This document shows positions 12,314 through 63,824 of a stretch of DNA of 64,000 nucleotides, piece by piece. Under the pieces are notes generated by a model, which saw nothing but the letters and a program-made list of their open reading frames with translations, searched no databases and was not told the DNA's origin. This stretch comes from Escherichia coli (GTDB taxonomy: Bacteria > Pseudomonadota > Gammaproteobacteria > Enterobacterales > Enterobacteriaceae): assembly GCF_013315695.1 (NCBI RefSeq), contig NZ_CP054353.1. The stretch is one strand, 5' to 3'. The position numbers and the translations under genes are program-made. The stretch's first letter is position 1. Every line of letters begins with the position of its first letter.

Positions 12314-13965
12314 TGAAATCGGTACGTTACCTTATCGGCCTCTTCGCGTTTATTGCCTGCTATTACCTGTTACCGATCAGCACGCGTCTGCTATGGCAAC
12401 CCGATGAAACGCGTTATGCGGAAATCAGTCGGGAAATGCTGGCATCCGGCGACTGGATTGTGCCCCATCTGTTAGGGCTACGTTATTTCGAAAAACCCAT
12501 TGCCGGATACTGGATTAACAGCATTGGGCAATGGCTATTTGGCGCGAATAACTTTGGTGTGCGGGCAGGCGTTATCTTTGCGACCCTGTTAACTGCCGCG
12601 CTGGTGACCTGGTTTACTCTGCGCTTATGGCGCGATAAACGTCTGGCACTACTCGCCGCTGTCATTTATCTCTCGCTGCTTATTGTCTACGCCATCGGCA
12701 CTTACGCCGTGCTCGATCCGTTTATTGCATTCTGGCTGGTGTCGGGAATGTGTAGCTTCTGGTTGGCAATGGATGCGCAAACGTGGAAAGGTAAAAGCGC
12801 GGGATTTTTACTGCTGGGAATCACCTGCGGCATGGGGGTGATGACCAAAGGTTTTCTCGCCCTTGCCGTGCCGGTATTAAGCGTGCTTCCATGGGTTGCA
12901 ACGCAAAAACGCTGGAAAGATCTCTTTATTTACGGCTGGCTGGCGGTCATCAGTTGCGTACTGACGGTTCTCCCCTGGGGACTGGCGATAGCGCAGCGGG
13001 AGCCTGACTTCTGGCACTATTTTTTCTGGGTTGAGCATATTCAACGCTTTGCAATGGATGATGCTCAGCATAGAGCTCCGTTCTGGTACTACTTGCCGGT
13101 CATCATTGCCGGTAGCCTGCCGTGGCTGGGATTACTCCCCGGAGCACTGTACGCAGGCTGGAAAAACCGCAAGCATTCCGCAACCGTCTATTTGTTGAGC
13201 TGGACGATAATGCCGCTGCTGTTTTTCTCCGTCGCTAAAGGCAAATTGCCCACCTATATTCTTTCCTGCTTTGCACCTCTGGCAATGCTGATGGCGCATT
13301 ACGCTTTGCTGGCAGCAAAAAATAATCCTCTGGCGCTGCGGATTAATGGCTGGATTAACATCGCTTTTGGTGTCACTGGCATTATTGCCACATTTGTGGT
13401 CTCCCCATGGGGACCAATGAACACGCCAGTGTGGCAAACCTTCGAGAGCTATAAAGTCTTTTGTGCCTGGTCGATTTTTTCGCTATGGGCATTTTTCGGC
13501 TGGTACACCTTAACAAACGTCGAAAAGACCTGGTCTTTTGCCGCGCTTTGCCCGCTGGGGCTGGCGTTGCTGGTAGGATTTTCAATTCCTGACAGAGTCA
13601 TGGAAGGAAAACATCCGCAATTTTTTGTCGAGATGACACAAGAATCACTGCAGCCAAGCCGCTATATTCTTACTGATAGCGTCGGTGTTGCCGCAGGTCT
13701 GGCATGGAGCCTGCAACGCGATGACATCATCATGTATCGCCAGACAGGTGAGTTGAAATACGGCCTTAATTATCCGGATGCGAAAGGGAGATTTGTCAGC
13801 GGTGATGAGTTCGCAAACTGGCTTAATCAACATCGTCAGGAGGGGATTATTACACTCGTGCTTTCGGTTGACCGCGATGAAGATATCAACAGTCTCGCCA
13901 TTCCGCCCGCAGATGCCATCGATCGTCAGGAGCGTCTGGTGCTGATTCAGTATCGTCCCAAATGA
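12313..13965 (+). CDS. arnT: undecaprenyl phosphate-alpha-L-Ara4N arabinosyl transferase
   Basis: 550-aa polytopic membrane protein ORF; overlaps arnD stop. Confidence 0.9.
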
Positions 13966-14297
13966 TCTGGCTAACATTAGTCTTTGCCAGCTTGCTTAGC
14001 GTTGCCGGGCAGTTGTGTCAGAAACAGGCAACCTGCTTTGTGGCGATAAACAAACGGCGCAAACATATCGTGCTGTGGCTGGGACTGGCGCTGGCTTGTC
14101 TTGGTCTTGCCATGGTGCTCTGGCTGCTGGTCTTGCAGAACGTACCGGTAGGCATTGCCTACCCGATGTTAAGTCTGAATTTTGTCTGGGTGACGCTGGC
14201 TGCAGTAAAACTGTGGCACGAACCGGTATCGCCGCGTCACTGGTGTGGGGTGGCGTTCATTATTGGTGGCATTGTGATCCTCGGGAGTACCGTGTAA
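13962..14297 (+). CDS. arnE: undecaprenyl phosphate-L-Ara4N flippase subunit
   Basis: 111-aa small multi-TM protein; ATGA overlap with arnT. Confidence 0.85.
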
Positions 14298-14683
14298 TGG
14301 GCCTGATGTGGGGATTATTCAGCGTCATTATCGCCTCCGCTGCGCAATTAAGCCTGGGTTTTGCGGCGAGTCATCTGCCGCCGATGACGCACTTATGGGA
14401 TTTTATCGCGGCGCTGTTAGCTTTTGGCCTGGATGCCCGGATACTGTTACTCGGGCTGCTGGGTTATCTGCTTTCCGTTTTTTGTTGGTATAAAACACTA
14501 CATAAACTTGCACTAAGCAAAGCCTATGCCTTGCTCAGTATGAGTTATGTGCTGGTATGGATTGCTTCAATGGTACTTCCCGGCTGGGAAGGAACTTTTT
14601 CGCTGAAAGCACTACTGGGAGTAGCCTGTATTATGAGCGGGTTGATGCTGATTTTCCTGCCCACGACAAAACAACGTTACTGA
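14297..14683 (+). CDS. arnF: undecaprenyl phosphate-L-Ara4N flippase subunit
   Basis: ATG at 14297 overlapping the arnE TAA (TAATG); 128 aa [22 protein letters not shown]...; lies inside the longer out-of-phase track ORF 14015..14683. Confidence 0.85.
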
Positions 14684-14943
14684 GTTTTCCCTGCCACTTT
14701 ACACTGCCGTTCCCACTCATCGGGGCTATAACTGCTTGCCGAGAGGACTTTCACCGTATGCAGCTTTTCACGATTAATACAATAAAGCGCATTCTGCAAA
14801 GGCGAGAGTAAATCCCCCACTTTCACGGCGAAGTCACTCTTCACTTCGGCGATCATTTTTATCGCGCCGCCAGCATCGCAGAGCATAAGTACATGTCTGT
14901 TATCTTGTTTATTGCAGCACGATTTTTTGACCAGCCATTCCAT
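14677..14943 (-). CDS. pmrD: signal-transduction connector protein PmrD
   Basis: ATG at 14941-14943 gives 88 aa [26 protein letters not shown]...; track ORF extends 10 codons further upstream; 3' end overlaps arnF 3' end by 7 bp. Confidence 0.85.
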
Positions 14944-15052
14944 TGCATTATCCTGTTTGATAAGAGTTTTCACATCAATTTACAGATTAACAGATAAACC
15001 TATTATCAACGGCAATGGAATGGCAAAATTGCGAAGTGAAACTAATGATTTC

Positions 15053-16408
15053 TTAATCCTGGCGTTGCACCCACTCTTTTAACGCCTGACGTGAAATTTT
15101 AATACCGCCGTTTTTCAGTTCTGATGGTAACGTTAACCAACGCACCGGTTGCTGAAAACGAGCCAACTTGTCTTTCACCCATTCGTCAAGATCAACGGTT
15201 TGCTGGTCATACTCCACCACCGCTACCGGCCGATGACCAAACTCCTTGTCGGCAACGGGGACGATAAACACCTGCAAAACCGCAGGATGTGCAGCAATAA
15301 CGCGCTCGACTTCTTCCGGCTGAATACCCTCACCGCCACTGAAGAATAGATTGTCTAAACGTCCGACAATGGTCAGCTTGCCATTATGCATCTCACCGCG
15401 ATCGCGCGTGGCGTACCAGCCTTCGTCATTAACCAGTGGAACCCGTTGCCCGTTACGCCAGTAACCTTCTGCCATACTGGCAGCCCGCAGCCACACTTCA
15501 TCATTAACGATTTTCACTTCCCGACCCGGCAGCGGCGAACCAACGTCCGCCAGGCCGTCGGCTTCTTTCGCACACACCGTGGAGGCAAACTCGGTCAGAC
15601 CATAGCCGCAAAAGCAACGAATCCCCTGCTCGCGCGCCTGTTCCGTCAACTCGACCGGGATAGCCGCGCCGCCAAGTAAAACCGCTTTCAGGGAAACGGA
15701 ACTACGGTTAACCAGCAAACGCCAGAGTTGTGTTGGCACCAGTGAAGCGTGAGTACAGCCTGCCAGCATTTGCTCCAATGGCTGTTTATCACGTACCGTC
15801 ATCCGCGCACCCGCGTATAACCAGCGCCACATAATTCCCTGACCGGAGACGTGAAACAGCGGTAAAGAGAGCAACCAGTCATCGTGCTCGCCAAACGGTA
15901 TCAGCGATAACACACCTTGCGCACTGGCAAGATGGGCCTGATAAGTATGAACAGCGGCTTTCGGCAAACCGGTAGAGCCAGAGGTCAACGTCATTGAGCA
16001 CAGACGCGTCGGCTGCCACGCAGCGGCATGTGCGCCTTCAACCAGCTGAATGTGCAGCGACGTTAACGCCGGAAACGTGTTTTCCCCATCCGGCACCAGC
16101 GCAAATTGCAGCGTCAGATTGGGCAGCAATTCTTCAAGCAACGGTTGCGGCAGCTGAGGGTTCACGGGCAACACCCGCGCCCCGCATTGCAGTAACGCCA
16201 GCCAGGCGAGCAGCGTTTGCGGCGTATTCCACGCCCGCAACATCACGCCGCTGCCCTCAACAACGCCCTGCGCCGCAAAGCCGGAGGCTAATTCATCGAC
16301 GCGAGCACAAAGCTCACGCCAGTTGAGTTGCTCGTCATTAAGACGTAAGGCGATGGCTTCTCCCCGCACTTGCCGCCAGTGACGCCACGGCCAGTCAGAG
16401 AAGATCAT
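15053..16408 (-). CDS. menE: o-succinylbenzoate--CoA ligase
   Basis: 451-aa ORF, adenylate-forming enzyme family, at the end of the men cluster. Confidence 0.9.
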
Positions 16409-46161: not shown

Positions 46162-46761
46162 ATGAAACAGAGCCATTTTTTTGCCCATCTCTCCCGCCTG
46201 AAACTCATTAACCGCTGGCCGCTAATGCGCAACGTGCGGACGGAAAATGTGTCCGAACACAGTTTGCAGGTAGCGATGGTCGCCCATGCGCTGGCTGCTA
46301 TCAAAAATCGGAAATTTGGCGGTAATGTCAACGCCGAACGTATCGCTTTACTGGCGATGTACCACGATGCCTCAGAAGTGCTCACCGGCGATCTCCCTAC
46401 TCCGGTGAAATACTTCAATTCGCAAATCGCTCAGGAGTACAAGGCGATTGAAAAAATCGCTCAGCAAAAACTGGTCGATATGGTTCCGGAAGAGCTGCGG
46501 GATATCTTTGCGCCGTTAATTGACGAGCATGCATATAGCGATGAAGAAAAATCGCTGGTGAAACAGGCGGATGCACTGTGTGCATATCTGAAATGTCTGG
46601 AGGAACTCGCGGCGGGAAATAATGAATTCTTGCTGGCAAAAACGCGACTGGAAGCGACGCTTGAAGCGCGCCGCAGCCAGGAGATGGACTACTTCATGGA
46701 AGTCTTTGTTCCCAGCTTCCATCTTTCGCTCGATGAGATTAGCCAGGATTCACCGCTGTAA
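46162..46761 (+). CDS. yfbR: HD-domain 5'-deoxynucleotidase
   Basis: 199-aa ORF with HD motif ([15 protein letters not shown]). Confidence 0.85.
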
Positions 46762-46773
46762 GCAGCCGGAGTC

Positions 46774-46812
46774 TGCGTCGCATCAGGCAATAAGCGCCGG
46801 ATGCGACATCAG
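46774..46812. repeat. REP (repetitive extragenic palindromic) element between convergent yfbR and yfbS
   Basis: GCGTCGCATCAGGCAATAAGCGCCGGATGCGACATCAGCC; contains the GCCTGATGCGACGC REP motif in reverse orientation. Confidence 0.5.
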
Positions 46813-46819
46813 CCTCTTG

Positions 46820-54380: not shown

Positions 54381-55901
54381 ATGTCCGCAATCACTGAATC
54401 TAAACCAACAAGAAGATGGGCAATGCCCGATACGTTGGTGATTATCTTTTTTGTTGCTATTTTAACCAGCCTTGCCACCTGGGTAGTTCCGGTGGGGATG
54501 TTTGACAGTCAGGAAGTGCAGTATCAGGTTGATGGTCAAACAAAAACACGCAAAGTCGTAGATCCACACTCATTTCGCATTCTGACTAACGAAGCAGGCG
54601 AACCTGAGTATCACCGCGTACAGCTGTTCACGACGGGCGATGAACGCCCGGGTCTGATGAACTTCCCGTTTGAAGGGTTAACCTCAGGATCGAAATACGG
54701 GACAGCCGTTGGCATCATCATGTTTATGCTGGTGATTGGCGGCGCGTTTGGCATTGTGATGCGTACAGGAACCATTGATAACGGTATCCTGGCGCTTATT
54801 CGCCATACTCGCGGGAATGAAATTCTCTTTATTCCTGCGCTGTTTATTCTGTTTTCACTTGGCGGTGCGGTATTTGGTATGGGGGAAGAGGCCGTCGCCT
54901 TTGCCATTATCATCGCACCGCTAATGGTCCGGCTGGGCTATGACAGTATTACCACCGTCCTGGTGACCTATATTGCCACGCAAATCGGTTTTGCCAGTTC
55001 GTGGATGAACCCGTTTTGTGTGGTCGTTGCTCAGGGGATTGCCGGCGTTCCGGTGCTTTCTGGCTCCGGGTTGCGCATCGTGGTGTGGGTTATCGCCACT
55101 CTGATTGGCCTGATCTTTACCATGGTGTACGCCTCACGAGTGAAAAAGAATCCTCTTCTGTCACGCGTGCATGAGTCCGACCGCTTCTTTCGTGAAAAGC
55201 AGGCGGATGTTGAACAACGTCCGTTTACCTTTGGTGACTGGCTGGTATTGATTGTCCTGACCGCCGTAATGGTCTGGGTGATTTGGGGCGTGATCGTTAA
55301 TGCCTGGTTTATTCCAGAAATTGCCAGCCAGTTCTTCACCATGGGTCTGGTGATTGGCATCATCGGCGTTGTTTTCCGCCTTAACGGCATGACGGTTAAT
55401 ACCATGGCTTCATCCTTCACCGAAGGGGCGCGAATGATGATCGCCCCTGCCCTGCTGGTAGGTTTCGCCAAAGGGATTTTGCTGCTGGTCGGTAATGGTG
55501 AAGCGGGTGATGCCAGCGTGTTAAATACCATCCTCAACAGCATTGCCAATGCCATTAGCGGTCTGGATAACGCGGTCGCGGCCTGGTTTATGTTGCTCTT
55601 CCAGGCGGTATTTAATTTCTTCGTGACGTCCGGTTCTGGTCAGGCGGCGTTAACCATGCCGTTACTGGCACCGCTTGGCGATCTGGTCGGTGTTAACCGT
55701 CAGGTTACCGTGCTGGCGTTCCAGTTTGGTGATGGCTTCAGCCACATCATTTACCCGACCTCAGCTTCGTTAATGGCAACGCTCGGTGTTTGCCGGGTGG
55801 ACTTCCGTAACTGGCTGAAGGTGGGCGCGACCCTGCTTGGACTGCTGTTTATTATGTCCAGCGTCGTGGTGATCGGCGCTCAGTTGATGGGCTACCACTA
55901 A
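54381..55901 (+). CDS. yfcC: putative C4-dicarboxylate anaerobic carrier-like inner membrane protein
   Basis: ATG at 54381 gives 506 aa MSAITESKPTRRWAMPDTL...; track ORF starts 7 codons upstream. Confidence 0.85.
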   Translation: MSAITESKPTRRWAMPDTLVIIFFVAILTSLATWVVPVGMFDSQEVQYQVDGQTKTRKVVDPHSFRILTNEAGEPEYHRVQLFTTGDERPGLMNFPFEGLTSGSKYGTAVGIIMFMLVIGGAFGIVMRTGTIDNGILALIRHTRGNEILFIPALFILFSLGGAVFGMGEEAVAFAIIIAPLMVRLGYDSITTVLVTYIATQIGFASSWMNPFCVVVAQGIAGVPVLSGSGLRIVVWVIATLIGLIFTMVYASRVKKNPLLSRVHESDRFFREKQADVEQRPFTFGDWLVLIVLTAVMVWVIWGVIVNAWFIPEIASQFFTMGLVIGIIGVVFRLNGMTVNTMASSFTEGARMMIAPALLVGFAKGILLLVGNGEAGDASVLNTILNSIANAISGLDNAVAAWFMLLFQAVFNFFVTSGSGQAALTMPLLAPLGDLVGVNRQVTVLAFQFGDGFSHIIYPTSASLMATLGVCRVDFRNWLKVGATLLGLLFIMSSVVVIGAQLMGYH

Positions 55902-55909
55902 AAATGTTA

Positions 55910-55935
55910 AGAGCCGCAATTGCGGCTCTTTTTTC
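55910..55935. terminator. bidirectional terminator between yfcC and yfcD
   Basis: 20-nt perfect palindrome AGAGCCGCAATTGCGGCTCT followed by TTTTTT. Confidence 0.7.
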
Positions 55936-59007: not shown

Positions 59008-59901
59008 ATGAAGATAGTGATCACCGGAGGGACGGGATTAATTGGTCGCCATTTGATTCCGCGTTTGCTGGATCTGGGCCATCAAATCACGGTAGTGACG
59101 CGTAACCCGCAGAAAGCCAGTTCCGTTCTCGGCCCTCGGGTGACACTATGGCAAGGGCTTGCCGATCAAAGTAACCTCAACGGCGTTGATGCGGTAATCA
59201 ACCTGGCCGGAGAACCGATTGCTGATAAACGCTGGACTCACGAGCAAAAAGAGCGTCTCTGCCAAAGCCGCTGGAATATCACGCAAAAACTGGTCGATTT
59301 GATTAATGCCAGCGACACGCCACCGTCGGTACTCATTTCCGGCTCGGCAACGGGCTATTATGGCGACTTAGGTGAAGTGGTGGTTACCGAAGAGGAACCG
59401 CCGCATAACGAATTTACCCATAAACTCTGCGCCCGCTGGGAAGAAATTGCCTGTCGGGCACAAAGTGACAAAACGCGAGTGTGCCTGCTGCGTACCGGCG
59501 TAGTGCTGGCACCGGATGGCGGTATTCTCGGTAAAATGCTGCCGCCGTTTCGTCTTGGCCTGGGCGGGCCGATTGGTTCCGGTCGGCAGTATCTGGCCTG
59601 GATTCATATTGATGATATGGTCAACGGCATTCTCTGGCTGCTGGATAACGAGCTGCGCGGGCCATTTAATATGGTTTCGCCCTACCCGGTACGCAATGAA
59701 CAATTTGCCCATGCGCTCGGTCATGCGCTGCATCGCCCGGCTATTTTGCGCGTCCCCGCAACCGCCATTCGGCTGTTAATGGGCGAATCTTCAGTACTGG
59801 TATTAGGTGGACAACGCGCGCTGCCTAAACGGCTGGAAGAAGCGGGTTTTGCGTTTCGTTGGTACGATTTAGAAGAGGCGCTGGAAAACGTAGTCCAGTA
59901 A
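59008..59901 (+). CDS. yfcH: NAD-dependent epimerase/dehydratase family protein (SDR fold)
   Basis: 297-aa ORF with N-terminal Rossmann motif (ITGGTGLIG). Confidence 0.85.
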
Positions 59902-59912
59902 TTTTTTACGTT

Positions 59913-59955
59913 CTTTCATGCCTGGCAATTATTACCAGGCATGAAAGCGCGTTAT
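59913..59955 (+). terminator. rho-independent terminator after yfcH, at the left edge of the inserted operon
   Basis: CTTTCATGCCTGG-CAATTATTA-CCAGGCATGAAAG followed by CGCGTTATTTACC. Confidence 0.65.
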
Positions 59956-59961
59956 TTACCT

Positions 59962-61401: not shown

Positions 61402-62615
61402 GGTTTCGTCCTTAGCGAGTCAAAAGCACGCTCCAGATCGGCAATTAAAAGAGCGGCATTTTCCTGCCCAAGCGAGAGACGAATTAATCCGCGCGGGATC
61501 TCCGCATCAACCAGTGCAGACTGATTATAACCACGGTTAGGTGAGATAATCAGGCTTTCATAGCCGCCCCAGCTACAGCCCGGTTTGAAAATACGGCAGG
61601 CATCGATAAAGCATTTCACTTCCTCAAAGCCGGCTCCTTTTAATTCGAAACTAAACAGTCCTGAAAAGCCACACATCTGGCGACGAATTATCTCTTTTTC
61701 CTTATCTGTAGCGCAGAGAGGATGACGTATATTTTCCACCTCATCACGAGTAGCTAACCATTCAATAACGTTAATCGCGTTATGCTGATGCGTTGCCATT
61801 CTGATCGGGAGTGTTCGTATACCACGTAACAGTAACCAGGCGCTAAACGGCGAAAGCACGGCACCTAATAGCTGATGCGAGAAATCACGAATGATGCTCA
61901 TCAATTCACGGCGGGTGATTACCACACCAGCTAACACATCACTGTGCCCGGCGAGATATTTTGTGCAGGAATGAATGACAATATCAAATCCCAGACTTAA
62001 CGGTTTTTGAAATAGCGGTGTCGGCCAGGTGTTATCAATTGCGGTGATAATCCCATAACGGGTCGCCAGTTGAGCTATCGCCTGTAAATCAACAATCTGC
62101 ATTGTCATGGTGCCGGGTGACTCAGCGTATATCATTCGGGTATTCAGTTTGATTTTTTGTTCAATAATATTGATATCGCCGTTGGAGATAATGTCATATT
62201 CAATATGGTATTTTTTTGCCAGGTTTTTAACTAATTCGATAGCCGGACCATAGATTTGATTAACTAATAAAATATGGTCACCGCTGTTTAACAAACCGAC
62301 CATCACTGCGCTGATTGCCCCCATGCCTGATGCAAAGCACCGCGCCTCTTCCCCCCCCTCCAGCAAAGCAAGTTTGGTTTCAACCATACTTACGGTTGGA
62401 TTTAAGCCGCGACTGTATATGTAACGCTGGGCTTCGTGACGCATATCATCACAATACTGCTGGTAATTCTTCTGCACAAAAAGACTGGTTTGAATAATCG
62501 GCGGCGCAACGGCACCGAAATACTCATCATGATTTTCATTTATACCGGAACAGGCAAGGTAATCGGATTCGGCAATATTTCCATCATTGAGTAACATGTT
62601 CTGATAACTGTTCAT
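61398..62615 (-). CDS. Cys/Met-metabolism PLP-dependent enzyme (cystathionine beta/gamma-lyase or methionine gamma-lyase family)
   Basis: 405-aa ORF with family motifs YSRGLNPT, FASGMGAIS, AIDNTW, DIVIHSCTKYLAGHSD (PLP-Lys), SPFSAWLLLRGIRTL; AAGGGA SD about 8 nt upstream of ATG; low GC. Confidence 0.8.
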   Translation of the reverse strand: MNSYQNMLLNDGNIAESDYLACSGINENHDEYFGAVAPPIIQTSLFVQKNYQQYCDDMRHEAQRYIYSRGLNPTVSMVETKLALLEGGEEARCFASGMGAISAVMVGLLNSGDHILLVNQIYGPAIELVKNLAKKYHIEYDIISNGDINIIEQKIKLNTRMIYAESPGTMTMQIVDLQAIAQLATRYGIITAIDNTWPTPLFQKPLSLGFDIVIHSCTKYLAGHSDVLAGVVITRRELMSIIRDFSHQLLGAVLSPFSAWLLLRGIRTLPIRMATHQHNAINVIEWLATRDEVENIRHPLCATDKEKEIIRRQMCGFSGLFSFELKGAGFEEVKCFIDACRIFKPGCSWGGYESLIISPNRGYNQSALVDAEIPRGLIRLSLGQENAALLIADLERAFDSLRTKP

Positions 62616-62861
62616 TTTATTTCCCTTATGTTTTTGTACAGAGAAATAGTAATATTATCATCTGGAAAAACCTTTGCACTTTTGCCAGTAACGGACTTGC
62701 CGTGGCAGACAATTAAAGAACAGATTGTAGGAACTCACATTTAAATCATATGGATTATGAATATTTTATTTATAAAGAAAAACATATATAAGCGACAAGT
62801 TAAAATACATTGAAGAAAGGGATAAATAAATGTGAGGAATATAGTTACGTTTACTACATGA

Positions 62862-62893
62862 CTGTCTCTTGCGGTCATGACTGCAAGAGACAG
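62862..62893. repeat. 32-bp near-perfect palindrome between the inserted operon and rpnB
   Basis: CTGTCTCTTGCGGTCA/TGACTGCAAGAGACAG with one central mismatch; 29 bp downstream of the rpnB stop. Confidence 0.6.
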
Positions 62894-62921
62894 ATTTAAT
62901 TAGAATAAAGTTCCACAGACG

Positions 62922-63824
62922 TCACTGCTTCTGGTTCAGAAGCTCCTCTGGCGAAAGTCGGGTCAGCGTCAGAACTAACTCTCGGTCTAAACCTCTCTCC
63001 AGCATCTCCTGAGCAATACGCAGGGCTTCTTCGCGTTTGCCCAGAATTAATCCATCATTCCGCCCTTCTTCACGTAATCTGTCAGCAATAGTCATCAGTT
63101 TCTCCTTTTCTTGTGGTGCGCGTTCCGCTATCTCACCAATAAATGCACGGAAACGCTGGGCATCTCCCGTTTGTAATACGTAATTAAACAGGGCTTTTAG
63201 CTGTCTGTCATTAGTGTTCCCTGTAACTAGCAGCGAAACAATTTGGTCGACTAATCCCAACAGATCGCGCTGACGAATATGTTTCTGAATTAACTCCAAC
63301 AGCGCCATTTTGCGATGTTGCATAATCTCGTCATCTGGCACCACGGTAATATCCACCAGCGGAAAAGCTGATGAATATATTTTGCGGGCTATAGCAGGCT
63401 CGGCAAATTCATCAAGCCAGCAGAGTGAATAAGGATAAGGACTTCTGCAACCATGATAAAACAGCATCGGGATCACCAATGGAAGCTCTTTATAGCCTGC
63501 ATCAAGATGGTTTTGCATCGCCGCAATGGAATAGCGCATCATGCGAAAAGCCATTAATTCTTCCGGCTTACTTTGGTGCTCTATCACCACATAAATATAA
63601 CCCGCTCTCTCCTGCGTTTTCACAGACCACAAGAGGTCGGAATAATATTGCCGCAGGTCTTCATCAATAAAACTGTTTGGTTCCAGTTTAAGCGTCGTCA
63701 AATCACACAGTTTGCGCAGCGGCGCGGGAAGATGAATATCAATAAAATCCCGCGCGGTGTCTGGATGGCGTAAAAAAGATTTAAATACCGCATCATGCGG
63801 CGTGGAAGTTGTCGATATTGTCAT
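62922..63824 (-). CDS. rpnB: Rpn-family recombination-promoting nuclease (YhgA-like, transposase_31 / PD-(D/E)XK)
   Basis: 300-aa ORF with the conserved N-terminal HDAVFKSFL motif of Rpn/YhgA-like proteins. Confidence 0.8.

Follow-up and report, generated by a model that had tools for sequence, protein, structure and literature searches.

The arnF and pmrD genes of Escherichia coli converge tail to tail with no spacer between them, and their coding sequences overlap by 7 nt in what is an ordinary, annotated arrangement. Taken as a whole it is probably best explained as a spacer-less junction arising from stop-codon drift, with diffuse Rho-dependent termination of read-through transcripts in both directions and a regulatory effect that would be modest and asymmetric. 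The default reading is one of neutral architecture, in which the complementarity of the transcript 3′ ends is obligate but inconsequential, and a real regulatory role for the overlap seems unlikely. The junction lies in a 64,000-nucleotide stretch of E. coli chromosomal DNA (contig NZ_CP054353.1 of assembly GCF_013315695.1), referred to here as the window. The arrangement is already known: it appears in genome annotations and in a published catalogue, and three genera share it. The PhoP-PmrD-PmrA connector is a textbook example of cross-talk between two-component systems and controls resistance to polymyxin and colistin, and ArnF is a subunit of the flippase for Ara4N-undecaprenyl phosphate. 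If convergent transcription contributes to this circuit it would add a cis-acting layer to PhoP-PmrD-PmrA feedback, and one limited to the genera in which pmrD sits beside arn (Escherichia, Salmonella, and Citrobacter, but not Klebsiella).

The original prediction, made from the letters of the sequence, placed the arnF end at 14683 and the pmrD end at 14677 on opposite strands, and both the positions and the convergent orientation are exact, by direct reading and in RefSeq (Table 1). It also described the two stop codons as overlapping each other, and this is not so: the triplets are neighbors with no base in common, because position 14680 separates them. Each stop is instead embedded in the partner reading frame, such that the arnF TGA spans pmrD codons Thr87 and Gln88, and the pmrD TAA spans arnF codons Arg126 and Tyr127. 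The final gene of the arnBCADTEF operon is arnF.

Table 1. Coordinates of features at and around the arnF/pmrD junction (window positions; minus-strand genes are given in their direction of transcription).
Feature	Coordinates	Strand	Description	Basis
arnF CDS	14297-14683	+	128 aa; TGA at 14681-14683	ORF list, sequence, RefSeq
pmrD CDS	14943-14677	-	88 aa; ATG at 14943-14941, TAA at 14679-14677	Sequence, RefSeq
arnF/pmrD shared stretch	14677-14683		TTACTGA (5′-3′); 7 nt, both stop triplets inside	Direct reading
Read-through RNA past arnF stop	14684-14790	+	Antisense to pmrD 3′ half; candidate Rho-loading region	
Read-through RNA past pmrD stop	14520-14676	-	Antisense to arnF 3′ part; candidate Rho-loading region	
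13-bp hairpin within arnF	14511-14540	-	-17.5 kcal/mol; 137-166 nt past pmrD stop; candidate 3′ stem	
arnB	7333-8472			Converted from record coordinates
PmrA box, arnB promoter (CTTAAGGTTAAGTTAAT)	7218-7234	+	1 mismatch; source of PmrA-activated transcription reaching arnF	
PmrA-box-like direct repeat (ACTAATGATTTCTTAAT)	15041-15057	+	2 mismatches to YTTAAK-N5-YTTAAK; overlaps menE stop	
menE-pmrD spacer with pmrD promoter region	14944-15052	-		9-species alignment
Other convergent spacers (nhaC/yfcH, yfcD/yfcC, yfbS/yfbR, nuoN/yfbM, ais/nudI)	6384-6423, 27278-27344, 46758-46817, 55898-55931, 59898-59959 (listed by position, independently of the order of the pairs)		32-65 nt	

Some convergent overlaps in databases originate from 3′-extension errors (PMC2478687), and were one of the two frames called too long the overlap would be unreal. 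There is next to no chance of such an annotation artefact here, and the sequence itself refutes it. Both stops are independent of gene calling. Each frame runs to its first in-frame stop codon, and the frames are anchored by full-length matches at the equivalog level. ArnF belongs to NCBIfam equivalog NF002816 (139.6 bits against a cut-off of 99, residues 4–122 of 128) and PmrD to NF011994 (175.4 bits against a cut-off of 96, residues 1–85 of 88); PmrD homologues carry PF11183. The 7-nt overlap is also annotated in E. coli MS 21-1, whose 1-kb junction region is 100% identical to that of the window, and in K-12 MG1655 (arnF at 2372892..2373278, pmrD at complement 2373272..2373538). A 121-nt probe matched over at least 99% of its length recovers an ungapped junction in 5415 of 5426 complete E. 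coli genomes, with arnF and pmrD annotations underlying all of the matches listed. The same ends are present in E. albertii.

Six convergent gene pairs are present in the window, and arnF/pmrD is the only one without a spacer. Four of the other five spacers contain strong palindromic hairpins (-14 to -22 kcal/mol), with -22 kcal/mol reached at yfbS/yfbR, and the nhaC/yfcH hairpin is weak. We judged rarity from these six pairs together with published figures, in which short convergent overlaps make up 7% of the well-characterized gene overlaps in 338 genomes and are usually ascribed to stop-codon loss or 3′ extension (PMC2478687). The arnF/pmrD junction is thus the odd one out locally, yet a member of a recognized minority class in general. 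At the end of the window, an IS66-family element (62343–64000; ISEc23 transposase, tnpB, and a tnpA with an internal stop) adjoins nhaC and the gene for a trans-sulfuration enzyme. Near the window start, the rhamnonate cluster contains an MFS transporter pseudogene with a frameshift (534–1558).

The claim that no intergenic terminator separates the two genes is borne out. A consensus scan of positions 13900–15500 identified no terminator-like site (hairpin plus T-run) past either stop, and the hairpins near the junction are weak, the best single ones within 25–60 nt of it having energies of -5.9 to -9.0 kcal/mol. Two sites with 6-bp stems were rejected as candidates, a plus-strand hairpin with a T-run in arnF (14576–14591) and a minus-strand site in pmrD (14833–14815), both of which are in translated sequence upstream of the respective stop. 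Five sites were found by the scan in total where 1.8 are expected, which exceeds chance only weakly. In S. enterica, too, pmrD and arnF are free of terminator-like sites on both strands, and a whole-window scan revealed no Rfam family at the junction. The sole Rfam match in the window is a nuoG RNA (RF01748) at 37474–37516 on the minus strand, scoring 50.3 bits against a gathering threshold of 33.

With no intrinsic terminator, RNA polymerase that runs beyond either gene makes untranslated RNA antisense to the partner, and with no spacer either, any functional arnF and pmrD mRNAs must bear complementary 3′ ends. A ribosome terminating at a stop codon requires mRNA 3′ of that codon, as ribosome footprints show, so the complementarity of the two messages exceeds the 7 nt of the overlap. 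The proposal that read-through of one gene generates RNA antisense to the other is therefore anatomically sound, and overlap of the two transcripts in RNA-seq data is listed in a published catalogue (PMC12288877).

The composition of the two read-through RNAs suggests how they may end. RNA extending past the arnF stop is C-rich and G-poor by a composition script (C/G 1.3–1.6 in the segment of Table 1) and lacks both a stable hairpin and a terminator-like site (folding z = +0.39). RNA past the pmrD stop has a C/G of 1.5–1.7 in its segment of Table 1 (folding z = -1.48), where the consensus scan showed no terminator-like site with a U-tract. Over the first ~100 nt both RNAs have C/G values of 1.5–1.8, compared with 0.67–0.83 for the sense strands, and neither folds better than shuffled sequence. 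These are the compositional features, and those only, of a Rho-dependent terminator (about 80 nt of untranslated, C-rich, G-poor, and poorly structured RNA), from which we infer diffuse Rho-dependent termination within the partner gene, presumably one to a few hundred nucleotides on. Counting against the Rho reading, antisense strands of G-rich genes have such a composition quite generally. There are no pmrD or arnF entries in the supplements of an E. coli 3′-end mapping study (PMC7815308) or a Rho-terminator study (PMC9160355).

The strongest local structure in the pmrD-direction RNA is the 13-bp hairpin within arnF, which is followed by an interrupted U-rich tail. Its stability in that RNA compares with -8.6 kcal/mol in arn mRNA, and it is the stronger of the two strands in nine of 13 species; the asymmetry arises because the mismatches are G.U on the pmrD-direction strand (G.U:A.C ratio of 23:6). 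In an alignment of 13 sequences from Escherichia, Citrobacter, and Salmonella, 85% of the stem cells are paired. The asymmetry is suggestive of a candidate 3′ stem for pmrD, albeit one confounded by shared ancestry, and together with the stability of the hairpin it gives a hint that pmrD transcripts may end at a definite site and not only diffusely. A stronger version, that pmrD transcripts end at 14540–14511, either because the hairpin acts as a weak intrinsic terminator or because Rho-terminated RNA is trimmed back to a stable stem, would set the antisense overlap with arnF at ~170 nt. The energy, conservation, and strand bias of the stem all speak for such an end point, but we consider it rather improbable. 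The U-tract is interrupted and begins 4 nt past the stem, and the site accordingly escapes the consensus scan. The Salmonella stem is weak, at -7.9 to -12.3 kcal/mol. Covariation is not above a shuffle control (79/500), with only two pairs doubly changed, and we therefore do not claim the hairpin as a terminator. Conservation of the stem can also be explained by coding, since the palindrome coincides with the codons for LSKAYALLS, a conserved segment of ArnF, and the species are not independent, many of them being from the C. freundii complex. Under diffuse Rho-dependent termination, the hairpin may then stabilize the 3′ ends of pmrD transcripts.

To compare the junction among genera, PmrD relatives were collected and aligned, and their loci were fetched from species-representative genomes, with S. 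enterica added by an exact protein look-up. Tail-to-tail spacing is -7 nt in E. coli, E. albertii, and an Escherichia sp., -6 nt in S. enterica and S. diarizonae, 0 nt in Citrobacter sp. On2M, +2 nt in C. freundii-complex species, and either +3 or +9 nt in C. amalonaticus-group loci. Both the junction sequence and the two C-terminal tails vary between genera while the tight spacing persists, and the common trait is therefore the absent spacer rather than any particular overlap. The overlapping codons lie outside the conserved protein cores, as the family profiles stop at residue 85 of 88 in PmrD and 122 of 128 in ArnF. With non-conserved termini and an overlap length that varies among orthologous pairs, arnF/pmrD falls into the stop-codon-drift class, and the 7-nt overlap would be a by-product of such drift in two non-conserved tails. 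The persistence of the spacer-less state in three genera could reflect selection for transcript overlap, as opposed to inheritance with deletion bias.

The pmrD gene has been described as horizontally acquired, with a gene neighborhood that Citrobacter, Salmonella, and Escherichia share and that differs in Klebsiella (PMC3140997). In Pseudocitrobacter, pmrD is located elsewhere, flanked by genes for an MFS transporter and a small ferredoxin-domain protein with all three co-directional, and in Intestinirhabdus alba menE is followed by pmrD with arnF not adjacent. The placement of these distant pmrD loci agrees with the published acquisition, and pmrD may be viewed as a small incoming gene that has lodged next to menE on one side and the arn operon on the other, such that its 3′ end abuts arnF.

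Several of the genomes show decay on one side of the junction or the other. A decayed arn locus lies beside an intact pmrD in some (loci L004 at 3261–3647, L005 at 3254–3700, and L016 at 3240–3640). Escherichia sp. MOD1-EC7003 has an arnT-arnF fusion deletion and an internal stop, ‘E. coli’ SCPM-O-B-8794 retains only the last 22 arnF codons next to pmrD, with AT-rich DNA beyond, and arnF of S. arizonae CCUG 6322T has a frameshift or a 9-nt duplication. Truncated PmrD variants are common among E. coli-like sequences (clusters of 55–69 aa with 38–116 members each), and the 1-kb pmrD region is only 95–99% identical to the window in most E. coli genomes; pmrD thus seems to be unusually polymorphic, or decaying, in parts of E. 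coli.

The promoters that feed the junction are also in the window. PmrA-activated transcription reaching arnF originates at the PmrA box of the arnB promoter (Table 1), and a second PmrA-box-like repeat lies upstream of pmrD. A similar repeat upstream of pmrD is conserved in Escherichia and Citrobacter and is shifted in Salmonella. The pattern is loose and not enriched across the window (50 matches against 40.9 expected), so the pmrD-upstream match is consistent with the literature but does not constitute proof. Within the menE-pmrD spacer, the half-site GGTTTA (15000–14995) has a GTTTA core that is invariant in nine species and resembles a PhoP-box half-site; expression of pmrD is PhoP-dependent (PMC3140997). 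On the minus strand, the interval from the menE stop (15053) to the pmrD start (14943) contains no terminator-like site. Transcription of the men operon could therefore run on into pmrD and is perhaps tied to PhoP-independent pmrD expression, which has been mentioned (PMC13215669).

The geometry of arnF and pmrD, adjacent genes on opposite strands and tail to tail, is that of a convergent excludon, the functional hallmarks of which are mutually exclusive expression and RNase III processing. The pair is among 165 convergent ‘excludons’ of MG1655 supported by at least 50% of 58 RNA-seq data sets, and is highlighted there as functionally related (ExcludonFinder, NAR 2025, PMC12288877). Because the coding sequences themselves overlap, however, the catalogue criterion is trivially satisfied whenever both genes are expressed. 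A literature search recovered no paper testing interference at this locus and no expression data on mutually exclusive or inverse arnF and pmrD expression.

Mutual interference between the two transcription units, as originally proposed, is physically plausible and would act mainly through arn damping pmrD. Both pmrD and its promoter lie within ~330–370 nt of the arnF stop, and polymerases not terminated early by Rho would cross the gene and arrive at the promoter. When strongly induced by PmrA, arn transcription could thus dampen expression from the weaker pmrD unit, with the same sign as the known repression of pmrD by PmrA. In the other direction, damping of arnF, arnE, and arnT by pmrD transcription is likely to be limited by Rho. 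One could go further and suppose that the spacer-less junction has been maintained because transcript overlap implements regulation. Read-through of PmrA-activated arn would collide with or occlude pmrD transcription and form RNase III-sensitive duplexes with pmrD mRNA, and so provide a second, cis-acting negative feedback on the PmrA-stabilizing connector, and PhoP-driven pmrD transcription would conversely damp the distal arn genes. An obligate overlap without a terminator, the proximity of pmrD and its promoter, and spacing that stays tight in three genera despite sequence turnover all fit this idea, as does a second convergent overlap in the PmrA circuit (pmrR-basS). Repression of pmrD by PmrA occurs in Salmonella, with its convergent arrangement, and is absent from Klebsiella, where pmrD is elsewhere (PMC3140997, PMC2565834). 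Nevertheless, we regard selection for the overlap as doubtful. Validation of convergent excludons by p19 capture of dsRNA failed or was uninformative in general (PMC12288877), the conserved PmrA-box-like repeat upstream of pmrD offers a published alternative at the promoter, and interference of pmrD with arn opposes the function of PmrD in raising arn expression. Still less probable is a selected cis-antisense module, born when pmrD inserted beside arn in the Escherichia/Salmonella/Citrobacter lineage, in which arn transcription through pmrD and its promoter would be a transcription-coupled negative feedback alongside the PmrA box and the strand-specific arnF hairpin would define the pmrD 3′ end. 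A spacer-less junction with stop drift and diffuse termination thus remains our preferred account.

The anatomy has a practical consequence irrespective of regulation, in that a tag, scar, or cassette placed at the native pmrD 3′ end would be expected to change the last arnF codons. Insertions at this position may also initiate, or obstruct, transcription that enters arnF, arnE, and arnT. Since edits at the pmrD 3′ end touch arn, effects on genes of the Ara4N flippase and transferase are a possible confounder in the phenotypes of pmrD mutants.

Several known systems resemble the junction in part. Short convergent overlaps that arise through loss or shift of a stop codon are a few nucleotides long, consist of C-terminal extensions, and vary among relatives, as at arnF/pmrD, which shows nothing substantively different from that class. 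Catalogued convergent excludons are opposite-strand neighbors with 3′-overlapping transcripts, and arnF-pmrD is itself an entry; unlike typical examples, in which the intergenic region averages 95 nt in E. coli (PMC12288877), its coding sequences overlap and there is no intergenic region. The yfcD/yfcC pair has the same gene geometry and a textbook-like bidirectional terminator (AAGAGCCGCAATTGCGGCTCTTTTTT), whereas arnF/pmrD has no spacer, no GC-rich palindrome between the stops, and no flanking A- and U-tracts, and so is not a bidirectional intrinsic terminator.

Within the PmrA regulon, another convergent 3′ overlap is that of pmrR and basS (pmrB) at the eptA-pmrAB locus, outside the window; it is in the same excludon catalogue (PMC12288877) and is described elsewhere (PMC8129183). 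As with arnF/pmrD, a small feedback gene of the PmrA circuit overlaps the 3′ end of a PmrA-activated operon on the opposite strand, so that two such genes of the circuit are positioned tail to tail with PmrA-activated operons. The pmrR case differs in locus and in the proteins involved, and antisense effects are putative there too. The closest functional parallel is the feedback exerted through the pmrD promoter, with one report (PMC2565834) ascribing PmrA-dependent repression of pmrD in Salmonella to PmrA at that promoter, and giving Klebsiella as lacking both the box and the repression. Its sign is that of the proposed interference of arn with pmrD, active PmrA lowering pmrD in either case, but the Salmonella feedback involves protein binding and needs no overlap, and the two are compatible.
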